Below are positions 11,199-64,000 of a stretch of 64,000 nucleotides of DNA, one piece after another (positions within the stretch are counted from its first letter, which is position 1; the number at the start of each line of letters is the position of its first letter). The stretch comes from an uncultured Chloroflexia bacterium (lineage in GTDB: Bacteria > Chloroflexota > Limnocylindria > Limnocylindrales > CSP1-4). Both the position numbers and the translations under genes were made by a program. The stretch lies in NCBI GenBank assembly GCA_963720825.1, contig CAVRGY010000009.1, positions 155,665-219,664 of the forward strand. The letters run 5' to 3'. The notes beneath the pieces are model-generated. The model made no database searches and was not told where the DNA came from. It saw only the letters and a program-made list of their open reading frames with translations.

Positions 11199-11226
11199 CG
11201 GACCGGCACGCCGCCCCGCAACCACG

Positions 11227-43490: not shown

Positions 43491-43509
43491 TCGCCCGGGC
43501 TCGCCGGTG

Positions 43510-47436: not shown

Positions 47437-47477
47437 GGGGCGACGGGCGCGCCGCGAACCGGCCGGCCCGCCGACGC

Positions 47478-49907
47478 CTATCCGCGCATCCGTGATCCGT
47501 CAGGGTCGTACACCGGGGACTCGATCACCGCACCCGGGCGCCGGACGCCGAGGATCTCGATCTCCAGCGGCGTCCCGGGTGAGGCCAGCTCGACCGGGAG
47601 GTAGGCGAGGCCCAGGGTCATGCCCACGGCATGGCCGGGGGCGGCCGCCCGCAGGTAGTCGACCAGCCGCCCGTCGGAGAGCACCGGCTCGCCGCCTCGC
47701 GGGAACAGGTCCTCGGACGGCTCGAGGTCGATCCGGACCGTGACCAGGCGCCGGCGAACGCCTTCGGCCTGCTGGCGCAGCAGCGCGTCACGCCCGATGA
47801 ACTCGCCCTTGTCGAGCGCGACGAACCGCTCCAGGCCTGCTTCGAGCGGCGTGTACAGCGCCGAGATGTCCGCGCCCCACAGCCGGTAGCCCTTCTCGAG
47901 CCGCAGCGAGTCGAGCGCCCAGTACCCGATGTCGGCCAGGCCGTGCGCCTCGCCGGCCGCGAGCAGCAGGTCGTACAGGGTCCGCGAATCCTCGATCGGG
48001 TGGTGGAGCTCCCAGCCCAGCTCGCCCGTGTACGTGACGCGGAGCGCCCGTACCGGCACCGGGCCGACCTGGATGTCCCGGACAGCCATGAACGGGAAGC
48101 CCGCGTTCGAGAGGTCGTCGTCGGTCACGGCCGCGAGGACGTCGCGCGCGCGCGGCCCGGCGATCGCGAGGACGCCCCAGGCCGCCGTGACGTTCTCCAG
48201 GACCACCGACCCGTCGTCCGGCGCATGCCGGGCGATCCAGTCCAGGTCGTGGGTCTCCGTCCCGGCCGCCGTGATGAGGTAGAACCGGTCCTCGGCCAGC
48301 CGCGACACCGTGACATCGCACCAGATCCCGCCGGCCGGCGTGAGCATCTGGACCAGCGACGCGCGGCCCACCCGCGGCAGCCGGTTGGCGCCGAGACGAT
48401 CGAGCAGCGCGGCGGCGCCCGGCCCCCGGACCTCGTACTTCGCGAAGCTGGTCATGTCCAGCAGACCGGCTCGCTCCCGGACCGCCGCGCACTCGGCCAC
48501 CTGGTACGGCAGCCAGTCAGGCCGGTGGTACGTCGGCCGATTGCCGATCGGCTGACCCTCGGGCACGAAGTACAGCGGGCGCTCCCAGCCGTTGCGGGCG
48601 CCCATCACCGCACCGCGAGCCAGCAGGCGGTCGTACGGCGGGTCCGTCTTGAGCGGTCGGCCGGCGGGGAGCTCCTCGAACGGGTAGGGGATCGCGTACT
48701 CACGTTCGTAGACCTCGCGGGCGCGATCGATCACGAACGGCAGCGCGCTCGCATACGGCCCGAACCGGGCGACATCCAGCTCCCACAGGTTGTCGACCGG
48801 CTGTCCGTCGATGATCCAGGCCGCCGCGTTGTACCCGGCGCCGCCGCTCTGGACGATCCCGTAGCTGAACCCGGTGAGCGCGAAGAGGTTGCGCAGGCCG
48901 GGCACCCAGCCCATCAGCGCGTTGCCGTCCGGCGTGTAGCTGGTGGGGCCGTTGAGCAGCTGCTTCATGCCGGCCGTCTGCAGCACCGGCAGCCGATGCT
49001 GGGCGAGGTCGAGCACGTCGCCGACCTGCTCGAAGTCCGGCGCCAGCAGCTGCTGCCCGAACTCCCGCGGGATCCCGTGCGCAGCCCACGGCTTCGGGTC
49101 GTGCTCATAGGGCCCGACGATCAGGCCGCTGGCCTCCTCGCGGACGTAGAACGACGCCTCCGTGTCCCGGACGACGGGCATCTCCGCGTGCTCGGCGAGG
49201 AGCTCCGGCACGGCGTCGGTGATCAGGTACTGGTGCTCCATGGGCACGATGGGCAGCTCCACCCCGGCCAGCTGGCCGATCTCGCGGCCCCAGATCCCGC
49301 CGGCATTGACCACGATCCCGGCCCGGATCGTCCCGCGCGGCGTGACCACGTCCCATTCGCCGCCCGGCTGCGGCCGCAGCTCCGTGACCGGCGTCTCGAG
49401 CTCGATCTCGGCGCCCAGGTCGCGGGCGCCCCTGGCCATCGCCCGGGTGATGCTGCTCGGGTCGACGTACCCGTCCGTCGGGGTCCAGGCACCGGCGATC
49501 ACGCCGTCCACGTTGACCAGCGGCGCGCGCCGGGCGATCTCCGCGGGCCCGATGAGCTCGTATGGCAGCCCGACGATCTTGGCCAGGCCCGCCTCGTCGC
49601 GGTACTGGTCCATCCGGTCCTGGTCGTGGCCAGCCGGATGCTGCCGACGCCGTGGAAGTCGACGGTCTGGCCGCGTATCCGCCTCCATCCGCCGGAACAG
49701 GTCGACGCCGTACATCAGCAGCGATGTCACGTTGATGCTGGCGTTGAACTGCGTGCACAGGCCCGCGGCGTGCCACGTCGAACCCGCGGTGAGATCGTGC
49801 TTCTCGAGCAGGACGGTGTCCGTCCAGCCACGCTTCGCGAGGTGATAGAGGAGGCTGCAGCCGACGGCCCCGCCACCGATCACCACGACCCGCGCATCTG
49901 TCCTCAT
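47478..49907 (-). CDS. dimethylglycine/sarcosine dehydrogenase-like FAD oxidoreductase-GcvT fusion (paralogue B), compensated frame-break pair at about 49674 and 49621
   Basis: ATG 49907 follows GGAGGTGG. It carries 'VVVIGGGAVGCSLLYHLA', 'AGSTWHAAGL', 'YTGELGWELH' and 'RLEKGYRLWG'. The part of ORF 47478..52136 upstream of 49907 is antisense shadow. Confidence 0.85.
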   Translation of the reverse strand: MRTDARVVVIGGGAVGCSLLYHLAKRGWTDTVLLEKHDLTAGSTWHAAGLCTQFNASINVTSLLMYGVDLFRRMEADTRPDRRLPRRRQHPAGHDQDRMDQYRDEAGLAKIVGLPYELIGPAEIARRAPLVNVDGVIAGAWTPTDGYVDPSSITRAMARGARDLGAEIELETPVTELRPQPGGEWDVVTPRGTIRAGIVVNAGGIWGREIGQLAGVELPIVPMEHQYLITDAVPELLAEHAEMPVVRDTEASFYVREEASGLIVGPYEHDPKPWAAHGIPREFGQQLLAPDFEQVGDVLDLAQHRLPVLQTAGMKQLLNGPTSYTPDGNALMGWVPGLRNLFALTGFSYGIVQSGGAGYNAAAWIIDGQPVDNLWELDVARFGPYASALPFVIDRAREVYEREYAIPYPFEELPAGRPLKTDPPYDRLLARGAVMGARNGWERPLYFVPEGQPIGNRPTYHRPDWLPYQVAECAAVRERAGLLDMTSFAKYEVRGPGAAALLDRLGANRLPRVGRASLVQMLTPAGGIWCDVTVSRLAEDRFYLITAAGTETHDLDWIARHAPDDGSVVLENVTAAWGVLAIAGPRARDVLAAVTDDDLSNAGFPFMAVRDIQVGPVPVRALRVTYTGELGWELHHPIEDSRTLYDLLLAAGEAHGLADIGYWALDSLRLEKGYRLWGADISALYTPLEAGLERFVALDKGEFIGRDALLRQQAEGVRRRLVTVRIDLEPSEDLFPRGGEPVLSDGRLVDYLRAAAPGHAVGMTLGLAYLPVELASPGTPLEIEILGVRRPGAVIESPVYDPDGSRMRG

Positions 49908-49965
49908 CGACCCACCTCCATCCGTGCCGGGGTGTGCCTCGTCGTCGTTCCGAGCACCGTCCCCG

Positions 49966-49982
49966 CCATTGTAATAATATGG
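49966..49982. promoter_or_regulatory. AT-rich imperfect palindrome, candidate TetR operator or -10 region
   Basis: 'CCATTGTAATAATATGG' sits in the divergent region between paralogue B and the TetR gene. It is flanked by 'AGCACC'...'GGTGCT'. Confidence 0.3.
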
Positions 49983-50029
49983 TGCTATGAGCGTCAGCAG
50001 CGTCGACCCGGCGACCCGCCCGCGGGACC

Positions 50030-50649
50030 GTGGGCGCCGGGCGGACCGCCGAGCACCGCGAGCGCCAGCGCGAGCGGATCCTCGCCGCCGCCGAGCACCT
50101 CCTCGTGGACAGCGGCGTCGAGCGGATGCGCCTGCGCGACGTCGCGGAGGCCGCGGGCGTGTCCATCGGGACCGTCCAGCACTACTTCGACACCCGGGAC
50201 CGGCTGGTCGCCGAGCTGTTCGACTGGTCGGGCCGCCGCCGCCTGGAGGCCTGGACCTCGATGGAGCCCGGTGACGTGACCCCTGGCGCCGGATCGAGAC
50301 CCTGCTCCCCACGCGCTCGCGGAGCCGCTCCTGCGGCGGAGCCGGATCTGGGTGGAGTTCCTGGCGATGGCCCGCGACGAGGGGCTGCGGGCCGAGCTCG
50401 CCGGCTTCTACGAGGCGTGGCGGCGCGCCGTTCCGCGAGGCGATCGAGCAGGGATCGCCGGCGGGCTGTTCCGCCCGGCGATGTCCCGAGCGCCTCGTGG
50501 ACCTGCTGATCATGGGCGTGGACGGGGCGGAGGTCGCGACCGTCCTCGCGGCGCCGGGGACCTCGCGCGACCAGCTGCTGTCGTCGCTCGTGGACGCGGC
50601 GCGCACGCTCCTCGGCGTCGGACCAGATCCCGGCGAACCGCCGGCCTGA
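50030..50649 (+). pseudogene. TetR-family transcriptional regulator, at least 4 frame breaks
   Basis: The HTH region reads 'RERILAAAEHLLVDSGVERMRLRDVAEAAGVSIGTVQHYFDTRDRLVAELF'. Later blocks 'WVEFLAMARDEGLRAELAGFYEAWRRA', 'FREAIEQG' and 'ERLVDLLIMGVDGAEVA...' are spread over all three frames. Confidence 0.65.
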
Positions 50650-50684
50650 CGGCGGCGCTCCAGCACACGAGAGGTGTCGACCCG

Positions 50685-53162
50685 ATGACGACCGCCACCC
50701 CGCCCGCGCCCGACGCGGCGCCGTTCCCGACCCAGGCGCGCGTCGTCGTGATCGGCGGCGGCATCGTCGGCGCGAGCGTGCTCTACCACCTGACGGAGCG
50801 CGGCTGGACCGACGTGGTCCTGCTCGAGCGCAAGACGCTCACCTCCGGCACGACCTGGCATGCCGCGGGGCTGGTGGGCCAGCTCCGGGCGACCTACAAC
50901 ATGAGCCTGCTCGCGAGCTACGCGAAGGACCTGTTCCGCGAGCTCGAGCGGCGCACCGGCGACGGCACGGGCTTCGAGCAGCACGGGTCCCTGCTGATCG
51001 CGTCGACGCCCGGTCGCTGGGAGGAGATCCGGCGCGGCGCGTCGATGGGCCACCTCATCGGCGTCGACCTCGAGCTCGTCGACCGCGAGCGGGTCGGCGA
51101 GATGTGGCCGCTGCTCGACACCTCCGGCATCCTGGGCGCCGCCTTCATCCCGGGCGACGGGATGGCGAACCCCACCGACGTGACCCAGGCGCTGGCCAAG
51201 GCCGCGCGCATGGCCGGCGCCCGGGTGTTCGAGCAGACGAAGGTGACCGGCGTGCTCCGTCGGGACGGCCGCGTCAGCGGCGTGTCCACCGAGCGCGGCG
51301 ACATCGCCTGCGAGTACGTCGTGAACTGCACCGGCATGTGGGCGCGCGAGCTGGCCGGCCAGAGCGACGTCGTGGTCCCGCTCCATGCGGCGGAGCACTT
51401 CTACCTGGTCACCGAGCCGGTCGAGGGGCTCACCCCGGACCTGCCGGTCCTGCGCATGCCCGACGACGCGACCTACGCCCGCAACGAGGCGGGCAAGCTG
51501 ATGGTCGGGTTCTTCGAGCCCGGCGCCAAGCCGTGGGCGACGGACGGGATCCCGGAGGATGCCGAGTTCCTCACCCTGCCCGAGGACTGGGACCACCTCG
51601 AGCCGTGGATCCTGCGGGCGACGAAGCGCCTCCCCGTGTTCGGACGGGTGGGCATCCAGCTGTTCTTCAACGGACCCGAGAGCTTCACGCCCGACGACCG
51701 GTACATCCTGGGCGAGGCGCCGACGCTGGGCGGCTACTTCGTCGCCGCCGGCTTCAACTCCGTGGGCTTCGCGTCGGGCGGCGGCGCCGGGCGCGCGGTC
51801 GCCGACTGGGTCGTGGACGGCCACGCGCCGATGGACCTGTGGGAGGTGGACATCCGGCGGTTCATGCCCTTCCAGCGCAACCGCCGGTATCTCTACCAGC
51901 GGACGACCGAGACCCTGGGGCTGCTGTACGAGATGCACTGGCCGTTCCGGCAGATGGAGACCTCGCGCGGCGTCCGCCGCTCGCCGCTCCACGACCGGCT
52001 CGCGGCGCGCGGCGCGTGCTTCGGCGAGGTGTCCGGCTGGGAGCGCGCGAACTGGTACGCCCCCGAGGGCGTCGAGCCGCGCTACGAGTACTCGTACGGG
52101 CGCCAGAACTGGTTCCCGTACTCGGCCCAGGAGCATCGCGCCGTCCGCGAGGCGGTCGGCCTGTTCGACCAGACGTCGTTCGGCAAGATCCTGGTCCAGG
52201 GCCGGGACGCGGAGCGGGAGCTCAACCGGGTGTGCGCGGGCGACGTCGCCGTCGAGCCCGGGCGGCTGGTCTACACGCCGTGGCTCAACGAGCGCGGCGG
52301 GATCGAGTCGGACGTGACGATCACGCGGCTCGCGGACGACCGGTTCATGGTCGTCACGACCGGCACCTCGACGATGCGCGACCTCGACTGGCTGCGCCGG
52401 ACGATCGATCCCGAGGCGCGGGTCGCGGTCACCGACGTGACCTCCGCCGAGACGGTGATCAGCGTCATGGGCCCACGCTCACGCGAGCTGCTGGCCTCGC
52501 TGTCGGACGCGGACCTGTCCAACGCGGCGTTCCCGTTCGGGACCGCGCGCGAGATCGACCTCGGCTTCGCTTACGCGCGCGCGGCGCGGGTGACGTACGT
52601 GGGCGAGCTGGGCTGGGAGCTGTACGTGCCGATGGAGTTCGCGACCCACGTGTACGACACGATCGTGGCCGCCGGCGACGCCTTCGGCCTGCGCCATGCC
52701 GGCTACCACGCGCTGGACTCGCTGCGGATCGAGAAGGCGTACCGCCACTGGGGCCACGACATCACCGAGGAGGACACGCCGCTCGAGGGCGGTCTCGGCT
52801 TCACGGTGGGCTGGGACAAGCCCGGCGGGTTCATCGGCCGCGAGGCGCTCCTGCGCCAGCGCGAGGCGGGGTTCTCGCGGCGTCTCGCGGTCGTGATCCT
52901 CGACGATCCAGAGCCGCTGATGTACCACAACGAGCCCATCCTGCGGGACGGCCGCATCGTCGGCCGCGTCAGCTCCGGCGCCTTCGGGCACACCATCGGG
53001 CGCTCGATCGGACTGGGCTACGTGACCCGCGAGGACGGGCCGGTGACCTCGGACTGGCTGGCGGCCGGCCGGATCGAGGTCGAGGTCGCCCTCGAGCGGC
53101 AGCCCGCGACCGCGTCCCTGCGGGCGCCCTACGATCCGGGCAACGCTCGGATCCGGGCGTAG
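50685..53162 (+). CDS. dimethylglycine/sarcosine dehydrogenase-like FAD oxidoreductase-GcvT fusion (paralogue C)
   Basis: Starts at ATG 50685 and is intact at 825 aa. It carries 'VVVIGGGIVGASVLYHL', 'SGTTWHAAGL', 'YVGELGWELY' and 'RIEKAYRHWG'. Confidence 0.9.
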   Translation: MTTATPPAPDAAPFPTQARVVVIGGGIVGASVLYHLTERGWTDVVLLERKTLTSGTTWHAAGLVGQLRATYNMSLLASYAKDLFRELERRTGDGTGFEQHGSLLIASTPGRWEEIRRGASMGHLIGVDLELVDRERVGEMWPLLDTSGILGAAFIPGDGMANPTDVTQALAKAARMAGARVFEQTKVTGVLRRDGRVSGVSTERGDIACEYVVNCTGMWARELAGQSDVVVPLHAAEHFYLVTEPVEGLTPDLPVLRMPDDATYARNEAGKLMVGFFEPGAKPWATDGIPEDAEFLTLPEDWDHLEPWILRATKRLPVFGRVGIQLFFNGPESFTPDDRYILGEAPTLGGYFVAAGFNSVGFASGGGAGRAVADWVVDGHAPMDLWEVDIRRFMPFQRNRRYLYQRTTETLGLLYEMHWPFRQMETSRGVRRSPLHDRLAARGACFGEVSGWERANWYAPEGVEPRYEYSYGRQNWFPYSAQEHRAVREAVGLFDQTSFGKILVQGRDAERELNRVCAGDVAVEPGRLVYTPWLNERGGIESDVTITRLADDRFMVVTTGTSTMRDLDWLRRTIDPEARVAVTDVTSAETVISVMGPRSRELLASLSDADLSNAAFPFGTAREIDLGFAYARAARVTYVGELGWELYVPMEFATHVYDTIVAAGDAFGLRHAGYHALDSLRIEKAYRHWGHDITEEDTPLEGGLGFTVGWDKPGGFIGREALLRQREAGFSRRLAVVILDDPEPLMYHNEPILRDGRIVGRVSSGAFGHTIGRSIGLGYVTREDGPVTSDWLAAGRIEVEVALERQPATASLRAPYDPGNARIRA

Positions 53163-53182
53163 CCGGACGGATGATCGCGGGC

Positions 53183-53210
53183 GCCGGCTCGGGGCTACCC
53201 GAGCGCCGGC
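53183..53210. terminator. imperfect hairpin at the convergent gene junction
   Basis: 'GCCGGCTCGGG-gcta-CCCGAGCGCCGGC' has a 2-nt bulge. It overlaps the last codons of the permease gene. Confidence 0.25.
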
Positions 53211-54235
53211 TCCGCCTGCCCTTCCCGGCGATGGGCGACCCAGTCGCGCGCGGACCTGACGACCCCGGCAAACCCGCCCGGCTGGTAGATCATCACCAGG
53301 ATCAGCACCAGCCCGTAGAGGACGAGGTGGAGCCCGGGCAGGTTCGAGAACTGCGTGCGCAGGAGCTCGACCCCGATCGTCAGCGGGAACGCGATCACGG
53401 CCGGTCCCCAGAGCGTTCCGCGGCCACCGATGTAGGCCACGGCGAGCACCTCGACGGTGTGCGAGGTGAGCATGACGTCCGGCGTGAGGATGCCGTAGTA
53501 GTGCGCGTAGAACCCGCCCAGCCAGCCCGCGAACGCGCACGACAGGGTGAAGTTGATGACCAGGAACCGGGTGGGGTTGATGCCCGACGCCCGCGCGGCC
53601 TGAAGGTTCTGGCCGATCGCCCGGAACGCGAGGCCGAGGTTCGAGCGCGTGACCGCGGTGAGCACGATCACGGTGACGACCAGCATCCCGAGGATGACGT
53701 AGTAGTAGGGGAGGTTGTCCGAGGTATCGAGGAGCAGCGGCACGTTGAGCCCGAGCGATCCCCGGGTGATCTCGGTCATGTTCCGGGCGAGGCCCATCAG
53801 CGCCAGGCCGACGAACCAGGTCATGACCGCCGCGTAGATCCCGCGCAGGCGGAGCGTGAGCATGCCCGTGAGCAGCCCCACGAACCCCGCGGTGCCGGCC
53901 CCCGCGAAGATCCCGATCCATGGCGAGATCCCGAGGTTCGCCGCCACCAGGCCGGAGGTGTACGAGCCGACGCCGACGAACGCCGCGAACCCGAAGTTCA
54001 CGATGTTGATGTAGCCCGCGGTGAAGTCGAAGGCGACGGCCATCGCCGCCATCAGGGCGGCCCCGACGAGCCAGCGCTGGTAGTCCTGGCCGTCGAACGG
54101 CGGGATGAACGGGAGGACGACGGCGAACGCGACCACCGCGATGGCCGCCAGGCGGGACGTCCTCCGTGAGCGAGAGCTCGTTTGCTTCATGACCGCCACC
54201 GGGGTGGCACCGTCGGTGGCCACTAGAGCTCCCAC
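53195..54235 (-). CDS. branched-chain-amino-acid-type ABC transporter permease (LivM-like)
   Basis: The ORF is hydrophobic throughout and intact. It carries 'FGFAAFVGVGSY' and 'NLGLAFRAIGQN..AARASGIN'. The start is either GTG 54235 or ATG 54190. Confidence 0.8.
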   Translation of the reverse strand: MGALVATDGATPVAVMKQTSSRSRRTSRLAAIAVVAFAVVLPFIPPFDGQDYQRWLVGAALMAAMAVAFDFTAGYINIVNFGFAAFVGVGSYTSGLVAANLGISPWIGIFAGAGTAGFVGLLTGMLTLRLRGIYAAVMTWFVGLALMGLARNMTEITRGSLGLNVPLLLDTSDNLPYYYVILGMLVVTVIVLTAVTRSNLGLAFRAIGQNLQAARASGINPTRFLVINFTLSCAFAGWLGGFYAHYYGILTPDVMLTSHTVEVLAVAYIGGRGTLWGPAVIAFPLTIGVELLRTQFSNLPGLHLVLYGLVLILVMIYQPGGFAGVVRSARDWVAHRREGQAEPALG

Positions 54236-55260
54236 ACGCCTTTCACTTCACTGCCGAACAGGCCCGATGGCTTGAACAGCAGGATCAGGATGATGAACCC
54301 GGTCGGCAGCACGTCCACCCAGCCCAGGCCGACGTAGTACACGGCCAGCGTCTGGAGCAGCGCCACGATGAACGCGCCGATGATCGCGCCCTGGACGTTG
54401 CCCAGGCCCGCCAGGATCACGACGTACCAGGCGATGTACAGCGGCTGGATGCCGACGTCGGGGAACGACGGGAACATGAACAGCAGCGCCGCACCGGCGA
54501 GCGCCGCGAGCGCGAGGCTCAGGCCCATCGTCAGCACGAAGATGCTGTTGAGGCTGATCCCCGCCATCTGGGCCCCGGTCTCGTCCTGGGACACCGCGCG
54601 CATGGCCCGGCCAGTCCTCGTCCGCTGGAGGAACACCGAGAACGCGGCGATCGAGACCATCGCGACCACGAACACCATCGCCCGGTCGACGGAGATGGGC
54701 ACGTTCAGGATCTCGATCGGCTTGACGTCCCAGTAGCGGGTGATGCCCCGGAAGTCGTTGCCGAACACCAGGCGGTCGCCGTTGACCAGGACCACGGACA
54801 CGCCGGCGGTGAGCAGGAAGGTGTTCATCACCCACTGGTCGCGGCTCCGCTTGCGCAGCGGCCGGAACAGGAACACCTCGAGCAGCACGCCGCACGCGAA
54901 GCCGACCAGCGCCGCGACGATCATGCCCGGAAACGGTCCGGCCACCTTGAGCAGCACCGAGTCGGGGTTGTCGAACAGGGCGTCCTGGATCGGCGTGAAC
55001 ACGGTGTACGCGGTCAGCGACCCGATCATGAAGAACTCGCCATGGGCGAAGTTGGGGACGTTCATCACGCCGAACACGAGCGCCAGGCCACCGGCCATGA
55101 GGGCCCACATCCCGCCCGTGACGAGGGTGTCGACGAGGATCGAGGGCTGGATGAACGCGAACGCCACCAGGACCACCACGACCAGGCCGATCACGAGCCA
55201 CGTGAACGACAGGAAGCGCTTGGCCAGCGGGACGGAACGGAGGTTGGTTGCGGTCGTCAT
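54223..55260 (-). CDS. branched-chain-amino-acid-type ABC transporter permease (LivH-like)
   Basis: It carries 'NFAHGEFFMIGS', 'GRAMRAVSQDETGAQMAGI' and 'GNVQGAIIGAF'. The ORF is intact. Confidence 0.85.
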   Translation of the reverse strand: MTTATNLRSVPLAKRFLSFTWLVIGLVVVVLVAFAFIQPSILVDTLVTGGMWALMAGGLALVFGVMNVPNFAHGEFFMIGSLTAYTVFTPIQDALFDNPDSVLLKVAGPFPGMIVAALVGFACGVLLEVFLFRPLRKRSRDQWVMNTFLLTAGVSVVLVNGDRLVFGNDFRGITRYWDVKPIEILNVPISVDRAMVFVVAMVSIAAFSVFLQRTRTGRAMRAVSQDETGAQMAGISLNSIFVLTMGLSLALAALAGAALLFMFPSFPDVGIQPLYIAWYVVILAGLGNVQGAIIGAFIVALLQTLAVYYVGLGWVDVLPTGFIILILLFKPSGLFGSEVKGVWEL

Positions 55261-55267
55261 GGGTAGC

Positions 55268-55972
55268 TCAGATCCCCAGGTAGGCTTCCTGGACGTGGGT
55301 GTCCTTCAGCAGGCTGTCGCCGCTTCCCTCCAGCACGATCCGGCCCTGCTCCAGCACGTACGCGCGATCCACCAGGTGGAGCGTGGTGTTCACGTTCTGT
55401 TCGACCAGGAGGATCGTCACGCCGCGCAGGTGCAGCTGCTTGAGGGCCTCGAACGCGGCGAGCGTCGCCATCGGGGCGAGGCCGAGGGACGGCTCGTCGA
55501 CCAGCAGGAGCGAGGGTGACGGCATCAGTCCCCGGCCGATGGCCAGCATCTTGCGCTCGCCGCCGCTGAGGGTGCCGGCGAGCTGGTTCCGCCGCTCGAA
55601 CAGTCGCGGGAACAGCTCGAACACGAGCTCGGTCGTTGCCCGGATCTGCGCCTTGTCGCGGACGGAATGGGCGCCCACGAGAAGGTTCTCGTAGATCGAC
55701 ATCGACGGGAACAGGTTGAGGCTTTCCGAGACATAGCCGATGCCCGAGGTGCTCACCCTGTCGGGTGGCACCCGGTTGAGCGACTGGCCGCGGAACGTGA
55801 TCTCGCCCCGGATGGGGTTGAGGAAGCCGGCGATGGTCCGCAGCGTGGTGGTCTTGCCCGCGCCGTTCGGGCCGAGCAACGCGACGAACTCGCCTTCCTC
55901 GACATGGAGGTCAACCCCCCACAGCACCTGCAGGAGATCGTAGCCAGCTTCGACGCCGGTGAGTTGGAGCAC
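55268..55972 (-). CDS. ABC transporter ATP-binding protein (LivF-like)
   Basis: GTG 55972 follows GGAGG. Walker A is 'GPNGAGKTT', the signature is 'LSGGERKM' and Walker B is 'LLLVDEPS'. Confidence 0.85.
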   Translation of the reverse strand: MLQLTGVEAGYDLLQVLWGVDLHVEEGEFVALLGPNGAGKTTTLRTIAGFLNPIRGEITFRGQSLNRVPPDRVSTSGIGYVSESLNLFPSMSIYENLLVGAHSVRDKAQIRATTELVFELFPRLFERRNQLAGTLSGGERKMLAIGRGLMPSPSLLLVDEPSLGLAPMATLAAFEALKQLHLRGVTILLVEQNVNTTLHLVDRAYVLEQGRIVLEGSGDSLLKDTHVQEAYLGI

Positions 55973-55988
55973 CCTTCCCTCCGGGCTT

Positions 55989-56717
55989 TCAGAGAATGTA
56001 GTTGGTGCCGAGATACGCCTCGCGGACGCGCTCGTCCTGGGCGACGGTCGAGGCATCGCCGTGGGCGATCAGCTGTCCGTACTGGAGCACCGACAGGCGA
56101 CCGCACAGGTCGAGGATCAGCCGCATGACGTGCTCGACCATCACGATCGTCGTGCCATCGGCGCGGATCCGGCGCAGCAGGACCGCGATGTCGACCAGCT
56201 CGCTGGGCGTGAGACCCGCGGCGAACTCGTCGAGCAGCAGGAGCTTGGGATGGCTGGCCAGCGCACGCGCCAGGTCGAGGCGCTTGAGCTGGGATGCGTT
56301 GAGATGCGACGCGGGGGTGTCCACGGGCCGTGGAAACTCGACGTAGGTGAGCATCCCCAGCGCGCGGGTCGCCACGTCCGAATGCCGCAGATGCGGATCG
56401 CCGAACGTCGCGGCCACGATCACGTTGTCGAGCACGCTCATGCCGGGAAACGGCCGCGGGATCTGGAACGTCCGGCTGACGCCCAGCCGGCACATCTGCT
56501 CCGCGGGCAGGCCCGTGGTATCACGTCCGCCGAACCGGATCGTGCCGTCGTTGGGACGCGATGCCCCGGCAAGGCAGTTGAGCAGCGTGGACTTGCCGGC
56601 CCCGTTGGGACCGATGAGCCCGAAGATCTCACCCTCCTCGACGGAGAAGGTGACATTGTCGACGGCGGTCAGGCCGCCGAACCGCTTGGTGACCCCGGAG
56701 AGCTCAAGGAACGCCAT
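55989..56717 (-). CDS. ABC transporter ATP-binding protein (LivG-like)
   Basis: It carries 'GPNGAGKST', 'LLLLDEFAAG' and 'VMVEHVM'. The ORF is intact. Confidence 0.85.
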   Translation of the reverse strand: MAFLELSGVTKRFGGLTAVDNVTFSVEEGEIFGLIGPNGAGKSTLLNCLAGASRPNDGTIRFGGRDTTGLPAEQMCRLGVSRTFQIPRPFPGMSVLDNVIVAATFGDPHLRHSDVATRALGMLTYVEFPRPVDTPASHLNASQLKRLDLARALASHPKLLLLDEFAAGLTPSELVDIAVLLRRIRADGTTIVMVEHVMRLILDLCGRLSVLQYGQLIAHGDASTVAQDERVREAYLGTNYIL

Positions 56718-56738
56718 ACGCCTCTTCGCCTGGGTGAC

Positions 56739-56765
56739 GGGGGGCCGGAGCGAGCCCGGCCCCCC
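56739..56765 (-). promoter_or_regulatory. strong intercistronic GC hairpin after the substrate-binding-protein gene
   Basis: 'GGGGGGCCGG-agcgagc-CCGGCCCCCC' forms a perfect 10-bp all-G/C stem. It starts about 29 nt downstream of the SBP stop and lies before the livG-like start. Confidence 0.45.
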
Positions 56766-56793
56766 GAGTCTGCTGGATCAGGTCGATGGATGG

Positions 56794-58149
56794 TCAGGGC
56801 TTCTGCTGGATGACTCCCTTGGCGACCTCGGGCGGCCAGACCACTGTCGGGTTGCCGTCCATGTACTGGAGGGCAGGGAAGATGTAGTGGCCCTTGCCGA
56901 CGACCGGGTCAGGGATCGAGTCCTGCGAGTAGTCGTAGTTGGACATGATGATCCCGTCCGTGTACGTCAGCTTGCCCGTCCAGAGCTGTTCCTGGGCGGT
57001 CTTGTAGAGGGATTCGCTCGTGATCTCACAGGAGTCGGCGAGCGTCTGGTTCATGATCTTGATGAAGAAGTTGGAGAAGTCGAAGGACAGGCCGGCCGCC
57101 GACGGGCTCGGCTTGCTGCCGTACTTGGCCTCGTAGTCAGTTGCGAACTTCTGCGCCGCATCCGACGCGAATTGCGGGATCTGGTCGACGACGTAGTTCG
57201 ACGCGGTTCCGCTGAGCTTGTACCAGTCGCCGATCCAGCCGAGGCCGTCGGCCACGACCAGCGCCTTGACCCCGGCGTCATCGACGGCCTTGAGGAACGA
57301 GGCGATCGAGGCAGGGATCGTGGTGGTGCCCGCGATCAGCGGGATGTTGTCGTTCTTGTAGCGCGACACGATGGCCGAGAAATCGGTCTGCGTGGTGGGG
57401 AAGTAGTCCTCGCTCACGACGGTCCAGCCGACAGCCTTGAGCTGGTCTTCGAGGCCCGTCCCGAACGAGCGGCCCCAGTCGGTGTCCTCGCCGTAGATCG
57501 CGACCTTCTTCTCGGCGGGCGTATAGCTGCCGGCCGTGATCGCGTCCTCGATGGCCTGGACGTAGCCGATGGTGAGCTTGGCCGGATCCGGCCAGCCCTT
57601 CGAGGTCCAGTAGCCGTACTTCGCCTGGTTGCTGTTGAACTTCTCGTTCACGACACCGGTGGCGCCCATCGCGAAGAAGTGCGGGATCTTGTACTTCGCG
57701 GTGACCTCCATCTGGGCGACCGCGACCGAGCTGTGCCAGCCCAGGATCCCGGCGATGATCTTCTGGCCGGCGACGGCCTGCTCATAGGCGGCGGCGCCCT
57801 TCGCCGGATCCGACTGGTCGTCGATGTAGACGGGCTCGATGGTGTAGGGCCCGACCTTCCAGGAGATCGCGTCGAACGCCATGGACGAGGCGTTCTTCAT
57901 CTCCTCGCCGGTCAGGGCATTGGGGCCGGTGAACGGGCCCTCGATGCCGATCTTGATGGTTGCGGGCGCCGGCTCGGTGCAGTTGGCGGTACCCGAGCTG
58001 CCGGGTGCCGTCGAGGCCGGGGCGGCGGACTCCGGGGCGCTGCTCGCACCCGCGGTCGGGGACGACGATCCGCTGCCGCAGGCGCTCACCATGAGCACCG
58101 CAGCAACAGCGAGACCGGCGATCCGGAACCTGGTTCCAGTGTTGATCAC
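56794..58149 (-). CDS. ABC transporter substrate-binding lipoprotein (Leu/Ile/Val-binding protein family fold), ligand unknown
   Basis: GTG 58149 follows AGGAGGAG. The lipobox is 'LMVSAC', followed by a Ser/Ala/Pro linker. The type-I periplasmic-binding-fold pattern 'IKIGIEGPFTGPNA' is present. Confidence 0.8.
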   Translation of the reverse strand: MINTGTRFRIAGLAVAAVLMVSACGSGSSSPTAGASSAPESAAPASTAPGSSGTANCTEPAPATIKIGIEGPFTGPNALTGEEMKNASSMAFDAISWKVGPYTIEPVYIDDQSDPAKGAAAYEQAVAGQKIIAGILGWHSSVAVAQMEVTAKYKIPHFFAMGATGVVNEKFNSNQAKYGYWTSKGWPDPAKLTIGYVQAIEDAITAGSYTPAEKKVAIYGEDTDWGRSFGTGLEDQLKAVGWTVVSEDYFPTTQTDFSAIVSRYKNDNIPLIAGTTTIPASIASFLKAVDDAGVKALVVADGLGWIGDWYKLSGTASNYVVDQIPQFASDAAQKFATDYEAKYGSKPSPSAAGLSFDFSNFFIKIMNQTLADSCEITSESLYKTAQEQLWTGKLTYTDGIIMSNYDYSQDSIPDPVVGKGHYIFPALQYMDGNPTVVWPPEVAKGVIQQKP

Positions 58150-58170
58150 TGTGCTTCTCCTCCTGTCCGT

Positions 58171-58188
58171 CCAATCCAGGCGGATTGG
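58171..58188 (-). promoter_or_regulatory. hairpin in the EtfD-SBP intercistronic region
   Basis: 'CCAATCC-aggc-GGATTGG' forms a perfect 7-bp stem 14 nt upstream of the SBP RBS on the mRNA. Confidence 0.35.
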
Positions 58189-58203
58189 TACAACCCACGC
58201 AAG

Positions 58204-60286
58204 TCAGATGTCGTCTCTGCCCCCCTCCCGGTCGTCGGAGACGGCGGCGGTCGCCGCTCCCGATGAGGCTGCCGTCAGGGCGGCGGCGGGACGCTGCCGG
58301 CCTCGTTCGACGGCTTCGACCAGCAAGGTGGCGACATCCTTGACCTCGAGCCCGCCGTCCGTCGCTCGCATCCCGTCATCGAGCATGACGGTGCAGAACG
58401 GGCAGGCGACGGCGAGCGTTCCCGCCCCGGTGGCGGTGGCCTCGCGGGCGCGCTCCTCGTTGATCTGGCCGGCGCGCTCCTCGAGCCACATGTGGGCACC
58501 GCCGGCACCGCAGCAGAAGGTCCGCTCCTCTCGGCGCGCCATCTCGAGCGGGCGGCCGACGGCCGCCACCAGCTCCCGCGGCTCGGAGCGGACGTCGTTG
58601 TGGCGGGCCAGGTAGCACGAGTCGTGGTAGGTGATCGTGTCCGCGCTCGCGGCCGGCGACAGGCGCCCGTCGCGCACCAGCTCCGCCAGCAGCTGCGTGT
58701 GGTGCATGACCTCGTACCTGCCGCCGAAATCCGGGTACTCGTTGGCCAGCGTGTTGAAGCAGTGCGGGCAGGTGGTCACGATCCTGGTCACCTTCGCCTC
58801 GCCCAGGGTGTCGACGTTCTGCCTGGCCAGTGCCTGGAAGGTGTACTCGTCGCCCATCCGCCGGGCGGGATCGCCGGTGCAGCTCTCCCGCGGGCCGAGG
58901 ATCGCGAAATCGACCTGCGCCTCCTTGAGCAGCTTCGCGGTCGAGATCGCGCCGACCCGGGCACGCTCATCGAACGCCGGCGCGCAGCCGACCCAGAACA
59001 GGACGTCGGGCGGAGCGTCGCCGGGCTCGAGGACGCGGATGTCGAGGCCCTCCGCCCAGTCCACCCGCTCGGTCGCGGCGCCGCCCCACGGGTTGCCCGT
59101 GCGCTCCAGGTCCCGGAGCATCGCCGCGCCCTCCGCGGGCACGCGAGTGTCGACCATGACCAGGTTGCGCCGGAGGTCCACGATGTGGTCGATGTGCTCG
59201 ATCCCCACCGGGCACTCGCGGACGCACGCGCCGCAGGTCACGCAGTCCCACACCGTCTCATCGGCGACGGCGTTGGGGACGAGCGGGCTGCCGGCGAAGG
59301 ACCCGTTGCCCGCGGCGGCCAGCATCTGGTGGCCCTCGCGGTAGAGCTGGTCGCGGAGGCCCATGACCACGAGCTTGGGCGACAGGTTCTTGCCCGTGAA
59401 GAACGCCGGGCAGGCGTCCTGGCAGCGCCCGCACTCGGTGCAGGTCATGCCATCGACCATCTGCTTCCAGGTCATGTCCCGGATCGTCCCCATCCCGAAC
59501 CGGATCTGGTCCTCGGGAACGCTTGGGATCGTCGAACCGGAGCGGCTCCAGGCGGCCTCGCCGGCGGGTGCGCTCGAAGAAGATGTTGAACGCGACGATC
59601 AGGGTGTGGAGATGCTTGGTGTACGGGATGTACAGCAGGAACGCGAGGATCAGGATCGCGTGGACCCACACCACGCCGCGCTCGAGAACCTCGGTGGCCG
59701 CGCCGGCCGGGAGGAGGCCCGCGATGGCCGTCGAGATCGGCGACCACGCCGCCGGGTACTCGTTGTAGCCGAGCGCGACCCGCGACGCGTGCCAGATGAA
59801 CAGCGTGATCGCGATCGCCGCCTCGAACAGCAGGATGTTGTAGGCCTGCTGGAGGTAGCTGCCGACGAACCGGACGGGCCGCTGCCCCAGCCGGATCGCG
59901 AACGCGATGCTCACGCCGACCAGGGTGCCCAGCGCGAACAGGTCGGCCATCAGCGCGAACCAGCCCTGCTCGGACAGCCAGGGAATGGTCCAGTGCGGGC
60001 TCACCGCGCCCAGCCACGACATGACGATGGTGGGCAGCAGGACCAGGAAGCCCCAGAACAGCAGCAGGTGCATGACCCCGGGGATCGGGCGCAGGAACAG
60101 CTTGGACTGGGCGAGCACCCGGGGCACCTCGCGCCCGGTCCGCTGCGGCAGCTCGTCGAAGCGGGCCGAGGCGCGGCCGTGCATCACGAGCCGCGCGAGG
60201 TACAGCGCGCGCCGGGCAAACAGCCCGACGAACGTCAGCCAGACGGCAAGGAACAGGATCCCCGAGATGAGGATCCCGGTATCCAT
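58204..60286 (-). CDS. etfD: membrane-anchored Fe-S oxidoreductase (EtfD / HdrD-GlpC-like: TM domain + 2x[4Fe-4S] + 2 CCG domains), one frame break near 59515
   Basis: The N-terminal ~250 aa is polytopic (ORF 59258..60286). It is followed by 'CTECGRCQDACP', 'CVTCGACVRECP', 'TTCPHCFNTL' and 'FCCGAGGAHMW' in ORF 58204..59493. The gene lies 3 nt downstream of etfA. Confidence 0.75.
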
Positions 60287-60289
60287 GCC

Positions 60290-61252
60290 CTAGGCCCCGC
60301 GCACCCGGCGGATCTCCGCGCTGATGGCGGGGAGCACCTGGTGCAGGTCGCCGATCACGGCGTAGTCGGCGGTGGCCATGATCGGCGCCTCCGCGTCCCT
60401 GTTGATCGCGAGGATCTTCTTCGATGCCTTGCAGCCGGCCATGTGCTGGGTGGCGCCGCTGATCCCGCACGCGATGTACAGGTCGGGCGCGATCTTGGTC
60501 CCGGTCTGGCCGACCTGGTCGGTGTGCGAGCGCCAGCCCGAGATGGTCACCGCCCGGGAGCAGCCGACGGCGGCGCCCAGCAGCCCGGCCAGCTCCTCGA
60601 CGGGCCCGAACCCGGCCTCGGAGCCCACGCCCCGCCCGCCGGACACGACCACCCTGGCGTCGGCCAGCGAGATGCCGCCCACGGCGGCGGGGATCCGCTC
60701 GATCGCACGGACCACGAGATCCGCGTCGTCCAGCGTCGGGGCGAACGTCTCGACCGTTGCCGCGCCACCCGTCTGCGTCGCGGCGACGGTATGCGGCGCG
60801 ACCGTCATGATCGCGCGATCCGCGTGGATCACGGCCTCCTCGAGCAGGCTGCCGCCCCACCGCTGGCGGGTCACGGCAACCGGGCTGCCGGGGGTCGCGC
60901 GGGTGCAGTTCGCGGCAAACGGCAGGCTCGCCCGCGCCGCGACCCGGGCCAGGACGGTGTTGCCGTGCTCGGATCCGGGGCCCACGACGGCCGACGCGTC
61001 GAGGCTGGTCGCGAGATCGAACAGGACGCGCGCCACGGCATCGGGCGCGGCGGCGCCGAGCGCCGGGTGCTGCGCCACGTGGACCTGTGACGCGCCCCAC
61101 GCGCCAAGCCCGCCCGCCGCGGCCTCGTCACCGATGAGCAGCGCATGGACGGCGCCGCCGTCGGCCAGCTGACCGGCCAGCGCGAGTGCCTGGAGGGAGA
61201 CCTCGTCCGCGGCGCCGTCGGCGGTCGTGAGGTAGGCGAGCACGGTCGGCAT
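60290..61252 (-). CDS. etfA: electron transfer flavoprotein alpha subunit
   Basis: Starts at ATG 61252. It carries 'VVSGGRGVG', 'VGQTGTKIAPDLYIACGISGATQHMAG' and 'ILAINRDAEAPI'. Confidence 0.9.
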   Translation of the reverse strand: MPTVLAYLTTADGAADEVSLQALALAGQLADGGAVHALLIGDEAAAGGLGAWGASQVHVAQHPALGAAAPDAVARVLFDLATSLDASAVVGPGSEHGNTVLARVAARASLPFAANCTRATPGSPVAVTRQRWGGSLLEEAVIHADRAIMTVAPHTVAATQTGGAATVETFAPTLDDADLVVRAIERIPAAVGGISLADARVVVSGGRGVGSEAGFGPVEELAGLLGAAVGCSRAVTISGWRSHTDQVGQTGTKIAPDLYIACGISGATQHMAGCKASKKILAINRDAEAPIMATADYAVIGDLHQVLPAISAEIRRVRGA

Positions 61253-62016
61253 CACAGCACCCCCAGCGTGCCGAGCACGTCCACCACGGCCGGGGCGGCA
61301 TCGGCCCCCTGGCCGAGGATCACCGCCTGCTTCACCCGTCCCTCGGGGACCACCAGCCGGACCAGCTCGAGGCGCTGCTCGGGGCGGACCGGCGTCGAGG
61401 TGGCGACCGGCTTGCTCTTGGCGCGCAGCCGCCCCGGCACGGACGGGAAGCGCGGCACGTTGAGGCCCTCGAGGACCGCGACCACCGCGGGCAGCGGCAG
61501 CTCGTACACGTCGCGCCCGCCCGATACCTCCTGCTCGCAGCGGACGGCGGACGCGGTCGCGGACATCCCCTTGATCCCGGTCACGGTGGGCCGGCCGAGG
61601 GCTCGGCCGAGCCGGACGGCGGCCTGGTAGCCGCCGGAGTCGCCCGCCTCGTTGCCCATCAGGACCAGGTCGAACGGGCCGGATGCAGCCTCGTCGGCCC
61701 GAACGGCCTCCACGATCGCACCGACCGTCGACTCCGGGTCCCATTCGCCGCCGTCGGTGACGAGGTGGATCGCGCGCGCGACGCCCAGGGCCATCGCGTC
61801 GCGGAGCTGCTCGATCGCTTCGGCTGGCCCGAGGGTGAGCACGACCGCCTCGCCGCCGTGGGCCTCGATCAGGCGCACCGCCTGCTCCACGGCGCACTCC
61901 TCGTGCGGGCCGATCGCAAAGCCCAGGTGTTTCGTGTCGACGGCACGAGCGTCCGCGGTCAGCGTGATCCGGCCACCGACGGCCGGCACGCTCTTGATGC
62001 ACACGAGAACCTTCAT
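61252..62016 (-). CDS. etfB: electron transfer flavoprotein beta subunit
   Basis: Starts at ATG 62016. It carries 'MKVLVCIKSVP' and 'DLVLMGNEAGDSGGYQ'. Its stop overlaps the etfA start (TGATG). Confidence 0.9.
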   Translation of the reverse strand: MKVLVCIKSVPAVGGRITLTADARAVDTKHLGFAIGPHEECAVEQAVRLIEAHGGEAVVLTLGPAEAIEQLRDAMALGVARAIHLVTDGGEWDPESTVGAIVEAVRADEAASGPFDLVLMGNEAGDSGGYQAAVRLGRALGRPTVTGIKGMSATASAVRCEQEVSGGRDVYELPLPAVVAVLEGLNVPRFPSVPGRLRAKSKPVATSTPVRPEQRLELVRLVVPEGRVKQAVILGQGADAAPAVVDVLGTLGVL

Positions 62017-62018
62017 CG

Positions 62019-64000
62019 CTACGCCCGGATCCGCAGGTTCTCGGGGTCGAACAGGGGCCGCGATCCGGCCACCGCGACCGTCACCGGGTAGCGCTCGGCA
62101 AAGTACTCGACGAACAGGTGGTTGCCTTCGACGGCGTGCTCGGGCGGCAGGTACGCCAGCAGCACGTACTGGCCCGTCGAGGGGCTCGCCCCCGCGGAGG
62201 TCACGTAGGACCGCCGGCCCTTCGCGTCCGAGAGCGGCGTGCCATCCGCGGTCACGATCGGCTGCCGGCCGAGCGGGTAGCGCTTCTCGCCGCTGGCCGA
62301 CGTGTGGTCGTCCACGGTCAGCGTGCACAGGATGGCCGCCGGTTCCTCGCCCAGCTGGCGCAGGACGGCGTCGCGACCGACGAAGTCGGCGCCCTTGACC
62401 TTGACCGGCGCCATGCCCGCCTCGACCACGTTGTAGTCGCCGTCGAGCTCGGCGCCGTAGGCGCGATAGCTCTTCTCGAGCCGGCCCGTGGACACGTAGA
62501 CGCCGATCCCGCAGGCGGTGAGCCCGTGCGGCCGTCCCGCTTCCCACAGCTCGTCCCACAGGCGTTGGCCCTGCTCCATCGGCACGTACAGCTCCCAGCC
62601 CAGCTCGCCGACATACGAGATCCGCGATGCCAGCACCAGCTGGGACCCGATCTCGACGGTGCGGCAGGTGCCGAACCTGAACGCCTCGCTGGACAGGTCC
62701 GCCCGGGTGATCGACTGCACGATGTCCCGCGCGCGAGGGCCCCCACAGCCCGATCGTGGTGTACGCGGTGGACACGTCGACGATCGCGGCATCGGCGGGC
62801 ATGTGGTCACGGAACCACTTGAGGTCGCTCATGCCGTGCGCGCCACCGGTGACCACCCGGAAGGTCGACTCGTCGAGGCGCATGATCGTGAGGTCGCTCT
62901 TGAAGCCGCCCTCCTGCGACAGGACCGGCGTGTAGACCACGCGCCCGACCGGGACGTCCATCTGGCGCATCGCGACCGACTGGACGCCCGCCAGCGCGCC
63001 CGGGCCCACGATGTCGAACTTCATGAACGACGACAGGTCGAAGATGCCGGCCTGCTCGCGCATCGCGAGGTGCTCGGCGTTGATGATCGGCGACCACCAC
63101 CGGGCGTCCCACTCGTTGGGCCGGGTCACGACGCCGTACTTCTCGACCAGCGGCGCGTTGGACTCGAACCACTGGGGGCGCTCGAAGCCGGCGGCCTCGA
63201 AGAACCGCGCGCCGGCGGCCGTGTGCCAGTCGTGCATCGGGGACCGTCGGATCGGGCGGTCGGACTCGTACTGCTCGGCCGGGTGGACGATGCCGTAGGT
63301 CTTGGGGAACGCCTCGAACGCGCGGGCCTTGACGTGCTGGCGAGTCTTCTGGTGGGCGTGGAAGCGCGCCACGTCCGACGCGCCAAGGTCGATCGAGGGC
63401 TCGCCGTGGACCATCCACTCGGCGACGCACCTGCCGACCGCGGGACCCTCCTTGACCCATACGGCGGCCGCCGACCACAGGCCCTTGACCTCGGGTGTCT
63501 CGCCCAGGACGGGCATGCCGTCCGGGGTCAGCGCGATGAGCCCGTTGATCGCGTACTTCACGCCCACGGACTCGTCGCCCACGATCTCGGGCATCAGCTC
63601 CAGCGCGTCGCCCATCTGGGGGTCGAAGTCGTCCTGCGTGAACGGGAACTCCGTGGGCGACAGCGCCGCCTGCTCGATCGACGGGATGTCCTCCGGGTCG
63701 TGGAGGATCGAGCGGTGCGCGTAGGACCCGATCTCGAGCCCGATGCCGTCCTGGCGCTCGTACATCAGGACGTCCATGTCGCGCACGATCGGGAACTCGA
63801 TCGCCCTGGACGATCGCTCGAAGCGGGGGACGGGACCGACATCGATCATCTGGTGCACGACCGGCGTCAGCGGGATGTGCGAGCCGGCCATCTCGGCGAT
63901 CATCGGCGCCCACACGCCGCACGCGATCACGACGTACTCGGCCTCGACGGTGCCCCGGGTGGTCCGGACGGAGCGGACCCGGCCACCGGTGGTGTCGAAC
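62019..64000 (-). CDS. FAD oxidoreductase-GcvT fusion (dimethylglycine oxidase-like, paralogue D), 5' end outside window, one frame break near 62745
   Basis: It is close to paralogue A. Compare 'YPVTVAVAGSRPLFDPENLRIRA*' here with 'YPVTVAVAGATPLFDPANERLHS*' in A, and 'RRSYVTSAGASPS' here with 'RRSYVTSAGAGPS' in A. The stop is 2 nt before the etfB start. The ORF remains open at nt 64000. Confidence 0.85.

Follow-up and report, generated by a model that had tools for sequence, protein, structure and literature searches.

A nine-gene operon in a soil Chloroflexota genome that probably links uptake and oxidation of methylated glycines to its own ETF/EtfD route to menaquinone

The last part of a 64-kb stretch of DNA (the window; G000:C9:155665-219664, forward strand) from a soil Chloroflexota genome (G000, 3.38 Mb) raises the question of whether substrate uptake, oxidation and the delivery of electrons to respiration are encoded there as a single minus-strand operon, and whether the electron transfer flavoprotein (ETF) and the membrane protein EtfD within it are dedicated to this pathway, as a preliminary description had claimed, or represent the housekeeping set. 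Our analysis points to what is probably an accessory operon for methylated glycines. A lipoprotein-anchored LivJ-type ATP-binding cassette (ABC) importer would take up the pathway substrate, and a covalent-flavin, folate-dependent enzyme, referred to as D, would remove a methyl group as 5,10-methylene-tetrahydrofolate and thereby reduce its own ETF (EtfBA). EtfD would reoxidise the ETF and conduct the electrons via two CCG-domain clusters, two cubane [4Fe-4S] clusters and one haem b to menaquinone. The unit would be controlled by a GntR-type regulator and work downstream of a neighbouring MtgBCD-type corrinoid-dependent betaine demethylase. The gene identities, the conserved ligands, the conserved synteny and the presence of a second ETF/EtfD set linked to an acyl-CoA dehydrogenase, on which this proposal builds, were observed directly.

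Genes were called from an open reading frame (ORF) listing combined with Pfam domains, and coordinates below follow the window numbering. This revealed nine consecutive minus-strand genes in the order D, etfB, etfA, etfD, SBP, livG, livF, livH and livM, all nine identifiable by Pfam and arranged as described previously. D stretches from 62019 to beyond 64000, its start lying outside the window at the equivalent of ~64527, where the genome contig has an ATG after an AGGAG ribosome-binding site. The gene is followed by etfB (61252-62016; ETF beta subunit, 254 aa; Pfam ETF), etfA (60290-61252; ETF alpha subunit, 320 aa; Pfam ETF and ETF_alpha) and etfD (58204-60286; 693 aa when read through a frameshift at ~59522), the latter encoding transmembrane, Fer4 and two CCG domains. 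Transport genes complete the set: SBP (56794-58149; Peripla_BP_6), for a LivJ-type substrate-binding lipoprotein of the HAAT family (451 aa); the ATPase genes livG (55989-56717; ABC_tran with a BCA_ABC_TP_C tail, 242 aa) and livF (55268-55972; ABC_tran, 234 aa from GTG 55972); and the BPD_transp_2 permease genes livH (54223-55260; 345 aa) and livM (53195-54235), the last gene, whose product measures 346 aa from GTG 54235 or 331 aa from ATG 54190. Recomputed from these coordinates, the eight junctions from D to livM amount to 2 nt, a 1-nt overlap, 3, 54, 76, 16 and 7 nt, and a 13-nt overlap that becomes a 32-nt gap if livM starts at ATG 54190, identical to the values given before. Genes, order and junctions of the preliminary description therefore stand, with two additions that it did not mention, namely a 1-nt frameshift in each of D and etfD and the position of the D start beyond the window.

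The unit comprises exactly nine genes, because a divergent GntR/FCD gene precedes D and, at the other side, livM converges on paralogue C (one of three further dimethylglycine oxidase/dehydrogenase-like genes of this island), the two stop codons falling at 53195 and 53162. Shared strand, short junctions and a divergent and a convergent border are the layout of a single operon, and we infer that the nine genes are co-transcribed. Generic signal searches added little. Rfam recognised no known RNA family in the operon (the sole match in the window being a tRNA at 37214-37286), a Sigma-70 promoter scan returned 0 promoter-like sites vs. 0.5 in shuffled sequence and an intrinsic terminator scan 1 terminator-like site vs. 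2.2, both scans being uninformative for this organism, and the region 3' of livM folded no better than shuffled sequence.

The core of the operon is far from restricted to this genome. A search with the Fe-S part of EtfD against one genome per species yielded 578 relatives, of which the best 80 loci were examined. D, etfB, etfA and etfD were collinear and on the same strand in every one of the 80 loci with a long enough contig, these loci originating from Limnocylindria, Thermoleophilia/Gaiellales/Solirubrobacterales, Dormibacterota and a few others. D-etfB-etfA-etfD is hence a block conserved across Chloroflexota, Actinomycetota and Dormibacterota, and to call the arrangement unusual, as had been done, overstates the case: the block occurs in several phyla, and the dgcAB-fixAB cluster discussed below is a described functional analogue.

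Enzyme D (835 aa when read through a frameshift at ~62739) possesses the four-domain architecture DAO-FAO_M-GCV_T-GCV_T_C with a folate-binding GcvT-like part, Pfam reporting FAO_M, GCV_T and GCV_T_C. In line with its earlier naming as an enzyme resembling dimethylglycine oxidase (DMGO), D matched the Arthrobacter globiformis DMGO structure (PDB 1pj5) over its full length with 509 bits, as compared with ~300 bits for mammalian dimethylglycine dehydrogenase (DMGDH), and by sequence is assigned to the DMGO rather than the DMGDH clade. The GGSTGHAS stretch of D aligns with GGSTSHAP of 1pj5, leaving the position of the flavinylated His conserved; we take the aligned His of 1pj5 to be the site of covalent 8-alpha flavinylation in DMGO. 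Two residues after this His, DMGO carries Pro (HAP) and D carries Ser (HAS), and the motif GHASNF is present in D as well as in 65/65 D-linked orthologues of the fetched loci. For the DMGO/DMGDH family, Augustin et al. proposed a Pro-versus-Ala gatekeeper of O2 reactivity (PMC5082570), which is probably, but not certainly, the HAS/HAP position, the equation being ours as the text there gives no residue numbers. Dimethylglycine is the most likely substrate of D, sarcosine or a related N-methyl amine being possible.

If D were a true O2-using oxidase like the Arthrobacter enzyme, ETF and EtfD would have to serve other clients, e.g. the mitochondrial-DMGDH-type paralogues B and C. The higher score of D against DMGO than against mammalian DMGDH fits this scenario, as does the closer relationship of paralogue C to DMGDH (446 bits). 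However, the constant companion of etfB-etfA-etfD, at gaps or overlaps of 1-3 nt in ~70 loci across phyla, is D and neither B nor C, and the 65 D-linked orthologues without exception have GHASNF at the site of the DMGO HAP, which makes an oxidase improbable. From the gene context we infer that D is a dehydrogenase with ETF, not O2, as its acceptor; the earlier proposal of a dehydrogenase feeding the quinone pool is supported to this extent, its electron acceptor being deduced from the neighbouring genes.

Both ETF subunits contain PF01012, and the alpha subunit in addition the FAD domain PF00766. As to the type of ETF, the matches point in no single direction: the best PDB matches of etfB were the canonical Paracoccus and human beta subunits (no NCBIfam model reached its cut-off for this protein), whereas etfA scored slightly higher with the bifurcating ETFs CarE (163 bits) and 5ol2 (160 bits) than with human ETF (131 bits). 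Taken by itself, the latter result would agree with an ETF of the bifurcating Fix type, coupled to NAD(H) or ferredoxin instead of just passing electrons to quinone. We consider this most improbable, given the canonical matches of the beta subunit, the lack of FixC/FixX, a ferredoxin or an NADH-linked partner within the block, and the nature of the partner that is encoded, an EtfD with a complete wire to haem b.

Indeed, EtfD aligned with the Mycobacterium smegmatis EtfD structure (PDB 9ojn) at 471 bits, the match spanning membrane as well as soluble parts, and its hydropathy profile displayed five membrane segments. The structure paper of 2026 lists the haem, Fe-S and menaquinone-site residues of the mycobacterial protein (PMC13083937), and all ligand residues listed there are conserved in the Chloroflexota protein. 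In 9ojn numbering, the two haem b ligands, His78 and His241, have His counterparts in GVMH and KHLH, Arg137, Arg150 and Arg306 are kept, and so are Phe85 and Phe230 of the menaquinone site. The cubane motifs CTECGRCQDAC and CVTCGACVREC align with Cys301/304/307/311 and Cys412/415/418/422, respectively, and Pfam Fer4 families matched as well. Pfam CCG was found in two stretches (112 bits), and for cluster D1 the motifs WVGC, SCTG and CPHC align with Cys503, Cys538, Cys581, His583 and Cys584. The cysteines of this linear [3Fe-4S] cluster are absent from the homologues FadF and DgcB (PMC13083937). Judged by these residues, the etfD product is a predicted homologue of the membrane-bound haem b/Fe-S ETF:menaquinone oxidoreductase, so that its assignment to the mycobacterial EtfD type was confirmed residue by residue.

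A dedicated ETF/EtfD set implies that a second one covers general metabolism, and the genome indeed contains two ETF_alpha genes. The second set, on contig C7 (G000:C7:375250-381266), consists of EtfD, an acyl-CoA dehydrogenase, etfB and etfA followed by nrdR, and is the expected beta-oxidation set; its etfA shares 36% identity with that of the operon, and its EtfD gene changes frame between membrane helices four and five. In the genus, 16/41 genomes had an orthologue of the D-linked etfA (>=71% identity), compared with any etfA match in 40/41, mostly to a paralogue of 35-40% identity. Because of this distribution and the acyl-CoA dehydrogenase-linked set on C7, we regard the ETF/EtfD of the operon as an accessory, pathway-linked set. 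The search thus bore out the claim of a dedicated set, the operon copy not being the only one in the genome. The same ETF/EtfD may serve the three other DMGO/DMGDH paralogues of the island. As for copy numbers in general, genomes of the same genus harbored 0-8 ETF_alpha genes (0 in one, 1-8 elsewhere), and no ETF_alpha match was obtained in the 12 genomes of a sister family of the same order (G019-G030; ~1.0-1.4 Mb).

As assembled, neither D nor etfD forms one open frame. In D, the frame switches at ~62739, splitting the GCV_T domain over two frames, and the window reads GGGGGCCCTCGCG where its relative L003 reads GGGGGCCGCGCG, one base fewer. In etfD, the switch at ~59522 falls between the membrane part and the Fe-S part, with CCCAAGCGTT in the window and CCCGACGTT, again one base fewer, in L003. 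L003 is a locus from another metagenome-assembled genome (MAG) with 96-98% nucleotide identity to the window outside the transporter cassette; it is free of both frameshifts and has a different 1-nt indel of its own in D, at the equivalent of window position 62171. Programmed frameshifting in either gene was considered and dropped, as at these sites one continuous frame is kept in L003 and in every other homologue.

Frame switches were counted genome-wide by a codon-model Viterbi scan, restricted to same-strand switches with the old frame open for >60 nt and calibrated on short-read vs. long-read-style MAG loci among the 80 fetched relatives. The scan called ~970 switches in the 3.38-Mb genome (2.9 per 10 kb), and 28 in the 64-kb window, including the breaks in D and etfD. 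Short-read MAG loci had 0.42 switches per 10 kb and long-read-style loci 2.69; the density in this genome is typical of a long-read MAG and about seven times that of the short-read controls. Further switches within the window were called, e.g., at 46369, 49628/49674, 50283 and 50488, and at the first of these positions the 99% identical contig C21, from the same bin, differs by a 1-nt indel. On either side of the breaks, the ratio of non-synonymous to synonymous substitution rates (dN/dS) against L003 was low (0.06 upstream and 0.17 downstream in D; 0.14 on both sides in etfD), and the G+C content at third codon positions (GC3) downstream of each break was 0.91-0.93. EtfD homologues are single chains of 660-715 aa overall, the closest in the database (93% identity) being intact at 693-694 aa. 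In view of the genome-wide density, the absence of both frameshifts from L003, the low dN/dS on both sides, the intact homologues, the equally broken EtfD gene on C7 and the indel relative to C21, the two frameshifts are most probably long-read consensus errors.

The same observations speak to whether the operon is decaying, with real frameshifts, D and etfD as pseudogenes and the transporter alone still working. Two single-base frameshifts in the assembly, a separate one in the D gene of the near-identical L003 and the accessory status of the D-linked set within the genus are what decay would leave behind. Yet frameshift-like events are found all over the genome (970) at a density equal to that of other long-read MAGs and ~7 times that of short-read ones, the C7 copy of EtfD is likewise broken, one of the breaks called in the window amounts to an indel against the 99% identical C21, dN/dS (0.14-0.17) and GC3 remain those given above downstream of the breaks, and the closest EtfD homologues are intact. 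We therefore give decay little credence. As frame switches are this dense genome-wide, any reading of a gene in this genome as a pseudogene or as recoded needs read-level confirmation.

Contig C21 (13 kb) itself is a 99% identical second copy of window positions 43479-56272, in which paralogue B and a TetR region are replaced by a different sequence; 1-nt indels at 51314 (paralogue C) and 46363 (DAO gene) also set it apart from the window. C21 is probably a co-binned strain variant.

As a HAAT-family (LivJHMGF-type) set the transporter is complete, with Peripla_BP_6, two BPD_transp_2 permeases and two ATPases, one of them carrying BCA_ABC_TP_C. The 234-aa length of livF agrees with that of the called homologues in loci L083 and L085, and the N-terminus of the SBP (substrate-binding protein) has a lipobox-like ...LMVSAC. 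For livG, the NCBIfam models LivG and UrtD matched below their cut-offs, and no Liv/Urt equivalog was reached. The 1416 homologues of the SBP are all generically named.

Comparison with other loci nonetheless connects this SBP clade with amine oxidation. In L083 (ENA contig_37088; 4564-13950), the gene order is D-etfB-etfA-SBP-livGFHM, with no etfD between etfA and the transporter or elsewhere in the 19-kb locus. In L084, a DMGO-like paralogue is followed by SBP-ABC, and in L085 SBP-ABC lies beside a DMGO-like gene, etfBA and MttB. The SBP homologues in these three gene orders share 62-74% identity with that of the operon, and L018 has a 66% homologue adjoining another paralogue. The proposed functional link between uptake and oxidation is thus supported, since members of the SBP clade have DMGO-like, ETF and MttB genes as neighbours in three further arrangements.

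Two RNA hairpins flank the SBP gene. A small one (CCAATCC gcct GGATTGG; minus strand, 58171-58188) is located in the 54-nt gap between etfD and SBP, just upstream of the SBP ribosome-binding site GGAGGAG; the gap as a whole folds with -15.9 kcal/mol (z = -1.1), like shuffled sequence. The other, a 12-bp G+C stem-loop without a U tract (minus strand, 56738-56766), directly follows the SBP stop codon and matched no Rfam family; comparable hairpins of different stem sequence occur after SBP in L003, L017 and L020. A hairpin behind the SBP gene of an ABC operon usually means higher SBP expression or partial termination, and the stem-loop at 56738-56766 probably serves, within the operon, either to terminate part of the transcripts or to stabilise the mRNA, and may attenuate read-through.

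The transporter genes also have a history of their own. The cassette formed by the mature part of the SBP and livGFHM (~58050 to 53150) shares 74-82% nucleotide identity with L003 (L003:11400-16350), as opposed to 96-98% in the flanks, i.e. D to etfD on one side and paralogue C on the other. Relative to L017/L020 the cassette is 83-93% identical, with 75-83% for D to etfD and 85-91% for paralogue C. Synonymous divergence (dS) between the window and L003 was 0.4-0.74 in the cassette vs. 0.08-0.13 in the flanks (4-7 times), and dN/dS of the SBP against L003 was 0.50. Since the cassette departs from its flanks in identity and dS against L003, and the identity pattern is reversed against L017 and L020, the cassette appears to have been replaced by recombination, with one breakpoint placed by sequence comparison just after the SBP signal peptide, at ~58050. 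A chimeric assembly was rejected as the origin of this mosaic, the cassette being identical to no sampled relative and the 99% identical C21 carrying the same allele from livM to livG.

Several of these results weigh against a pathway running from importer to menaquinone. The transporter directly follows etfD in only 6/80 loci, a strong hairpin stands 3' of the SBP, and the cassette is a separately exchanged module with its own evolutionary history. Matches of the SBP in the PDB were weak, generic relatives (<=45 bits), none of them informative for the ligand, and LivJ-type transporters are, to our knowledge, not the usual importers of betaine or dimethylglycine. Beyond the transporter, NCBIfam provided no equivalog model at cut-off for any of the nine proteins, and among characterised proteins D is closest to an oxidase. 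The points on synteny, on hairpins at both sides of the SBP and on the separately swapped cassette, together with the database name 'branched-chain amino acid', would suit an amino-acid importer that has no relation to the block and only happens to be located 3' of it, D-etfB-etfA-etfD then forming the functional unit. We hold this to be unlikely, albeit less so than an oxidase or a decaying operon. The transporter genes share the strand of the block across a 54-nt gap occupied only by a ribosome-binding site, with no promoter-like site in the scan described above; their position was retained despite the allele swap; in three other gene orders, one of them D-etfB-etfA-SBP-ABC, 62-74% identical homologues immediately adjoin DMGO-like genes; and the 66% homologue of L018 is next to yet another paralogue. 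The nine-gene unit including the importer remains the reading we prefer.

Upstream of D, outside the window (G000:C9:220377-229186), the contig carries an MtgBCD-type corrinoid methyltransferase cluster. On the divergent side it encodes the GntR/FCD regulator, a B12-binding corrinoid protein, DUF1638, a pterin-binding methyltransferase, an MttB-family protein (non-Pyl; 764 bits) and an MTHFR-like protein, the ORF of the latter resembling an MTHFR/DinB fusion; an IclR regulator gene and katG follow the cluster. Genes for MttB, corrinoid protein, DUF1638 and pterin methyltransferase were located <=10 kb from the conserved block in many of the 80 loci. The gene set corresponds to the betaine demethylase MtgBCD reported from aerobic marine bacteria (PMC12478193).

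Between D and the GntR gene lies a palindrome, TGTTGACA-N7-TGTCAACA (full site TGTTGACAtgacgaTTGTCAACA), at G000:C9 ~220380-220410, the equivalent of window ~64720-64745 and thus outside the window. It was present in 11 Limnocylindria loci, this genome counted, ~130-220 nt before the D start. The arms are conserved while the spacer varies, which suggests a putative GntR/FCD operator, and the divergent regulator probably acts on this sequence as the repressor of the operon.

On the livM side, the window contains three further DMGO/DMGDH paralogues, two on the minus strand (43513-46173 and 47484-49900) and paralogue C on the plus strand (50700-53162). Paralogue A is of the DMGO type (520 bits) and shares the GHASNF motif of D; paralogue C, with a TTWHAAG motif, is closer to mitochondrial DMGDH. 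A DAO-only gene (46201-47436; 411 aa) lies beside the paralogues, as it does in L083, L084 and L085.

How, then, does the operon compare with known systems? Its EtfD resembles that of mycobacteria, where Rv3029c/Rv3028c (EtfBA) and Rv0338c (EtfD) constitute the system of M. tuberculosis and 9ojn represents the M. smegmatis protein (PMC13083937). Shared features are the five transmembrane helices, one haem b, two cubane [4Fe-4S] clusters, two CCG domains and all ligands including the four D1 cysteines, with ETF as the presumed donor and menaquinone as the presumed acceptor. Unlike in mycobacteria, the client would be a DMGO-type amine dehydrogenase instead of acyl-CoA dehydrogenases, the genes share one operon with their client, and the ~30-kDa disordered C-terminal tail is missing (693 vs. 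1042 aa).

The analogue closest in logic is dgcAB-fixAB. In Pseudomonas aeruginosa, dgcAB-fixAB is a dimethylglycine demethylase system and DgcB an EtfD homologue, according to the citation of Wargo 2008 in PMC13083937, and the dgcAB-fixAB (etfAB) cluster of Vibrio natriegens adjoins a BCCT transporter gene (PMC12093977). A pathway-specific ETF pair, an EtfD homologue and, as proposed for the operon, dimethylglycine catabolism are common to these clusters and the operon, and the Vibrio cluster likewise has a transporter. However, DgcA is of the NADH:flavin-oxidoreductase type and D of the DAO/GCV_T (DMGO) type, DgcB is devoid of the cluster D1 cysteines whereas EtfD keeps the full mycobacterial-type cluster set, and the transporter is a BCCT protein there and a LivJ-type ABC system here.

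In mitochondria, the folate-dependent, covalent-FAD DMGDH/SARDH feed the respiratory quinone through ETF and ETF-QO (PMC5082570). That ETF is a shared housekeeping protein, ETF-QO is unrelated to EtfD, and D belongs to the DMGO clade. With A. globiformis DMGO (PDB 1pj5/1pj6), D has in common the same four domains and the same flavinylated-His position; the Arthrobacter enzyme was characterised as an O2-using oxidase and reads HAP in place of the HAS of D and its 65 orthologues. We know of no ETF partner described for it.

The gene cluster upstream of D finds its counterpart in MtgBCD of Ruegeria pomeroyi (PMC12478193), with an MttB-family protein, an MtgC-like corrinoid protein, DUF1638, an MtgD-like pterin methyltransferase and a MetF-like gene. 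In the Chloroflexota genome this is a neighbouring system outside the nine-gene unit. The Ruegeria paper describes no dedicated ETF/EtfD for the later demethylations, with 0 occurrences of 'electron transfer' in its main text (PMC12478193).

The design of the operon is real and widespread, and it has a known counterpart in Pseudomonas and Vibrio. Because its parts were all known before and proteobacteria have an analogue, the advance concerns scope rather than principle. A bolder extension, which we offer tentatively and consider doubtful, is that the GHASNF clade comprises ETF-dependent dehydrogenases rather than oxidases, each with a private EtfBA-EtfD. In that case these enzymes, together with MtgBCD, would be the chief means for abundant uncultured soil Chloroflexota, Thermoleophilia and Dormibacterota to respire methyl groups from betaine-type osmolytes into menaquinone, and swaps of the uptake cassette would retune which methylated amine a strain scavenges. 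Arthrobacter DMGO (HAP) and the ETF-linked clade (HAS) would offer a pair of homologues for studying what determines oxidase or dehydrogenase activity. In lineages that use MtgBCD for the first demethylation, the operon would supply the probable later steps of betaine catabolism. If our reading holds true, the EtfD wire would be not only the outlet of mycobacterial beta-oxidation, but a modular entry into respiration that is attached to individual amine dehydrogenases in soil bacteria.

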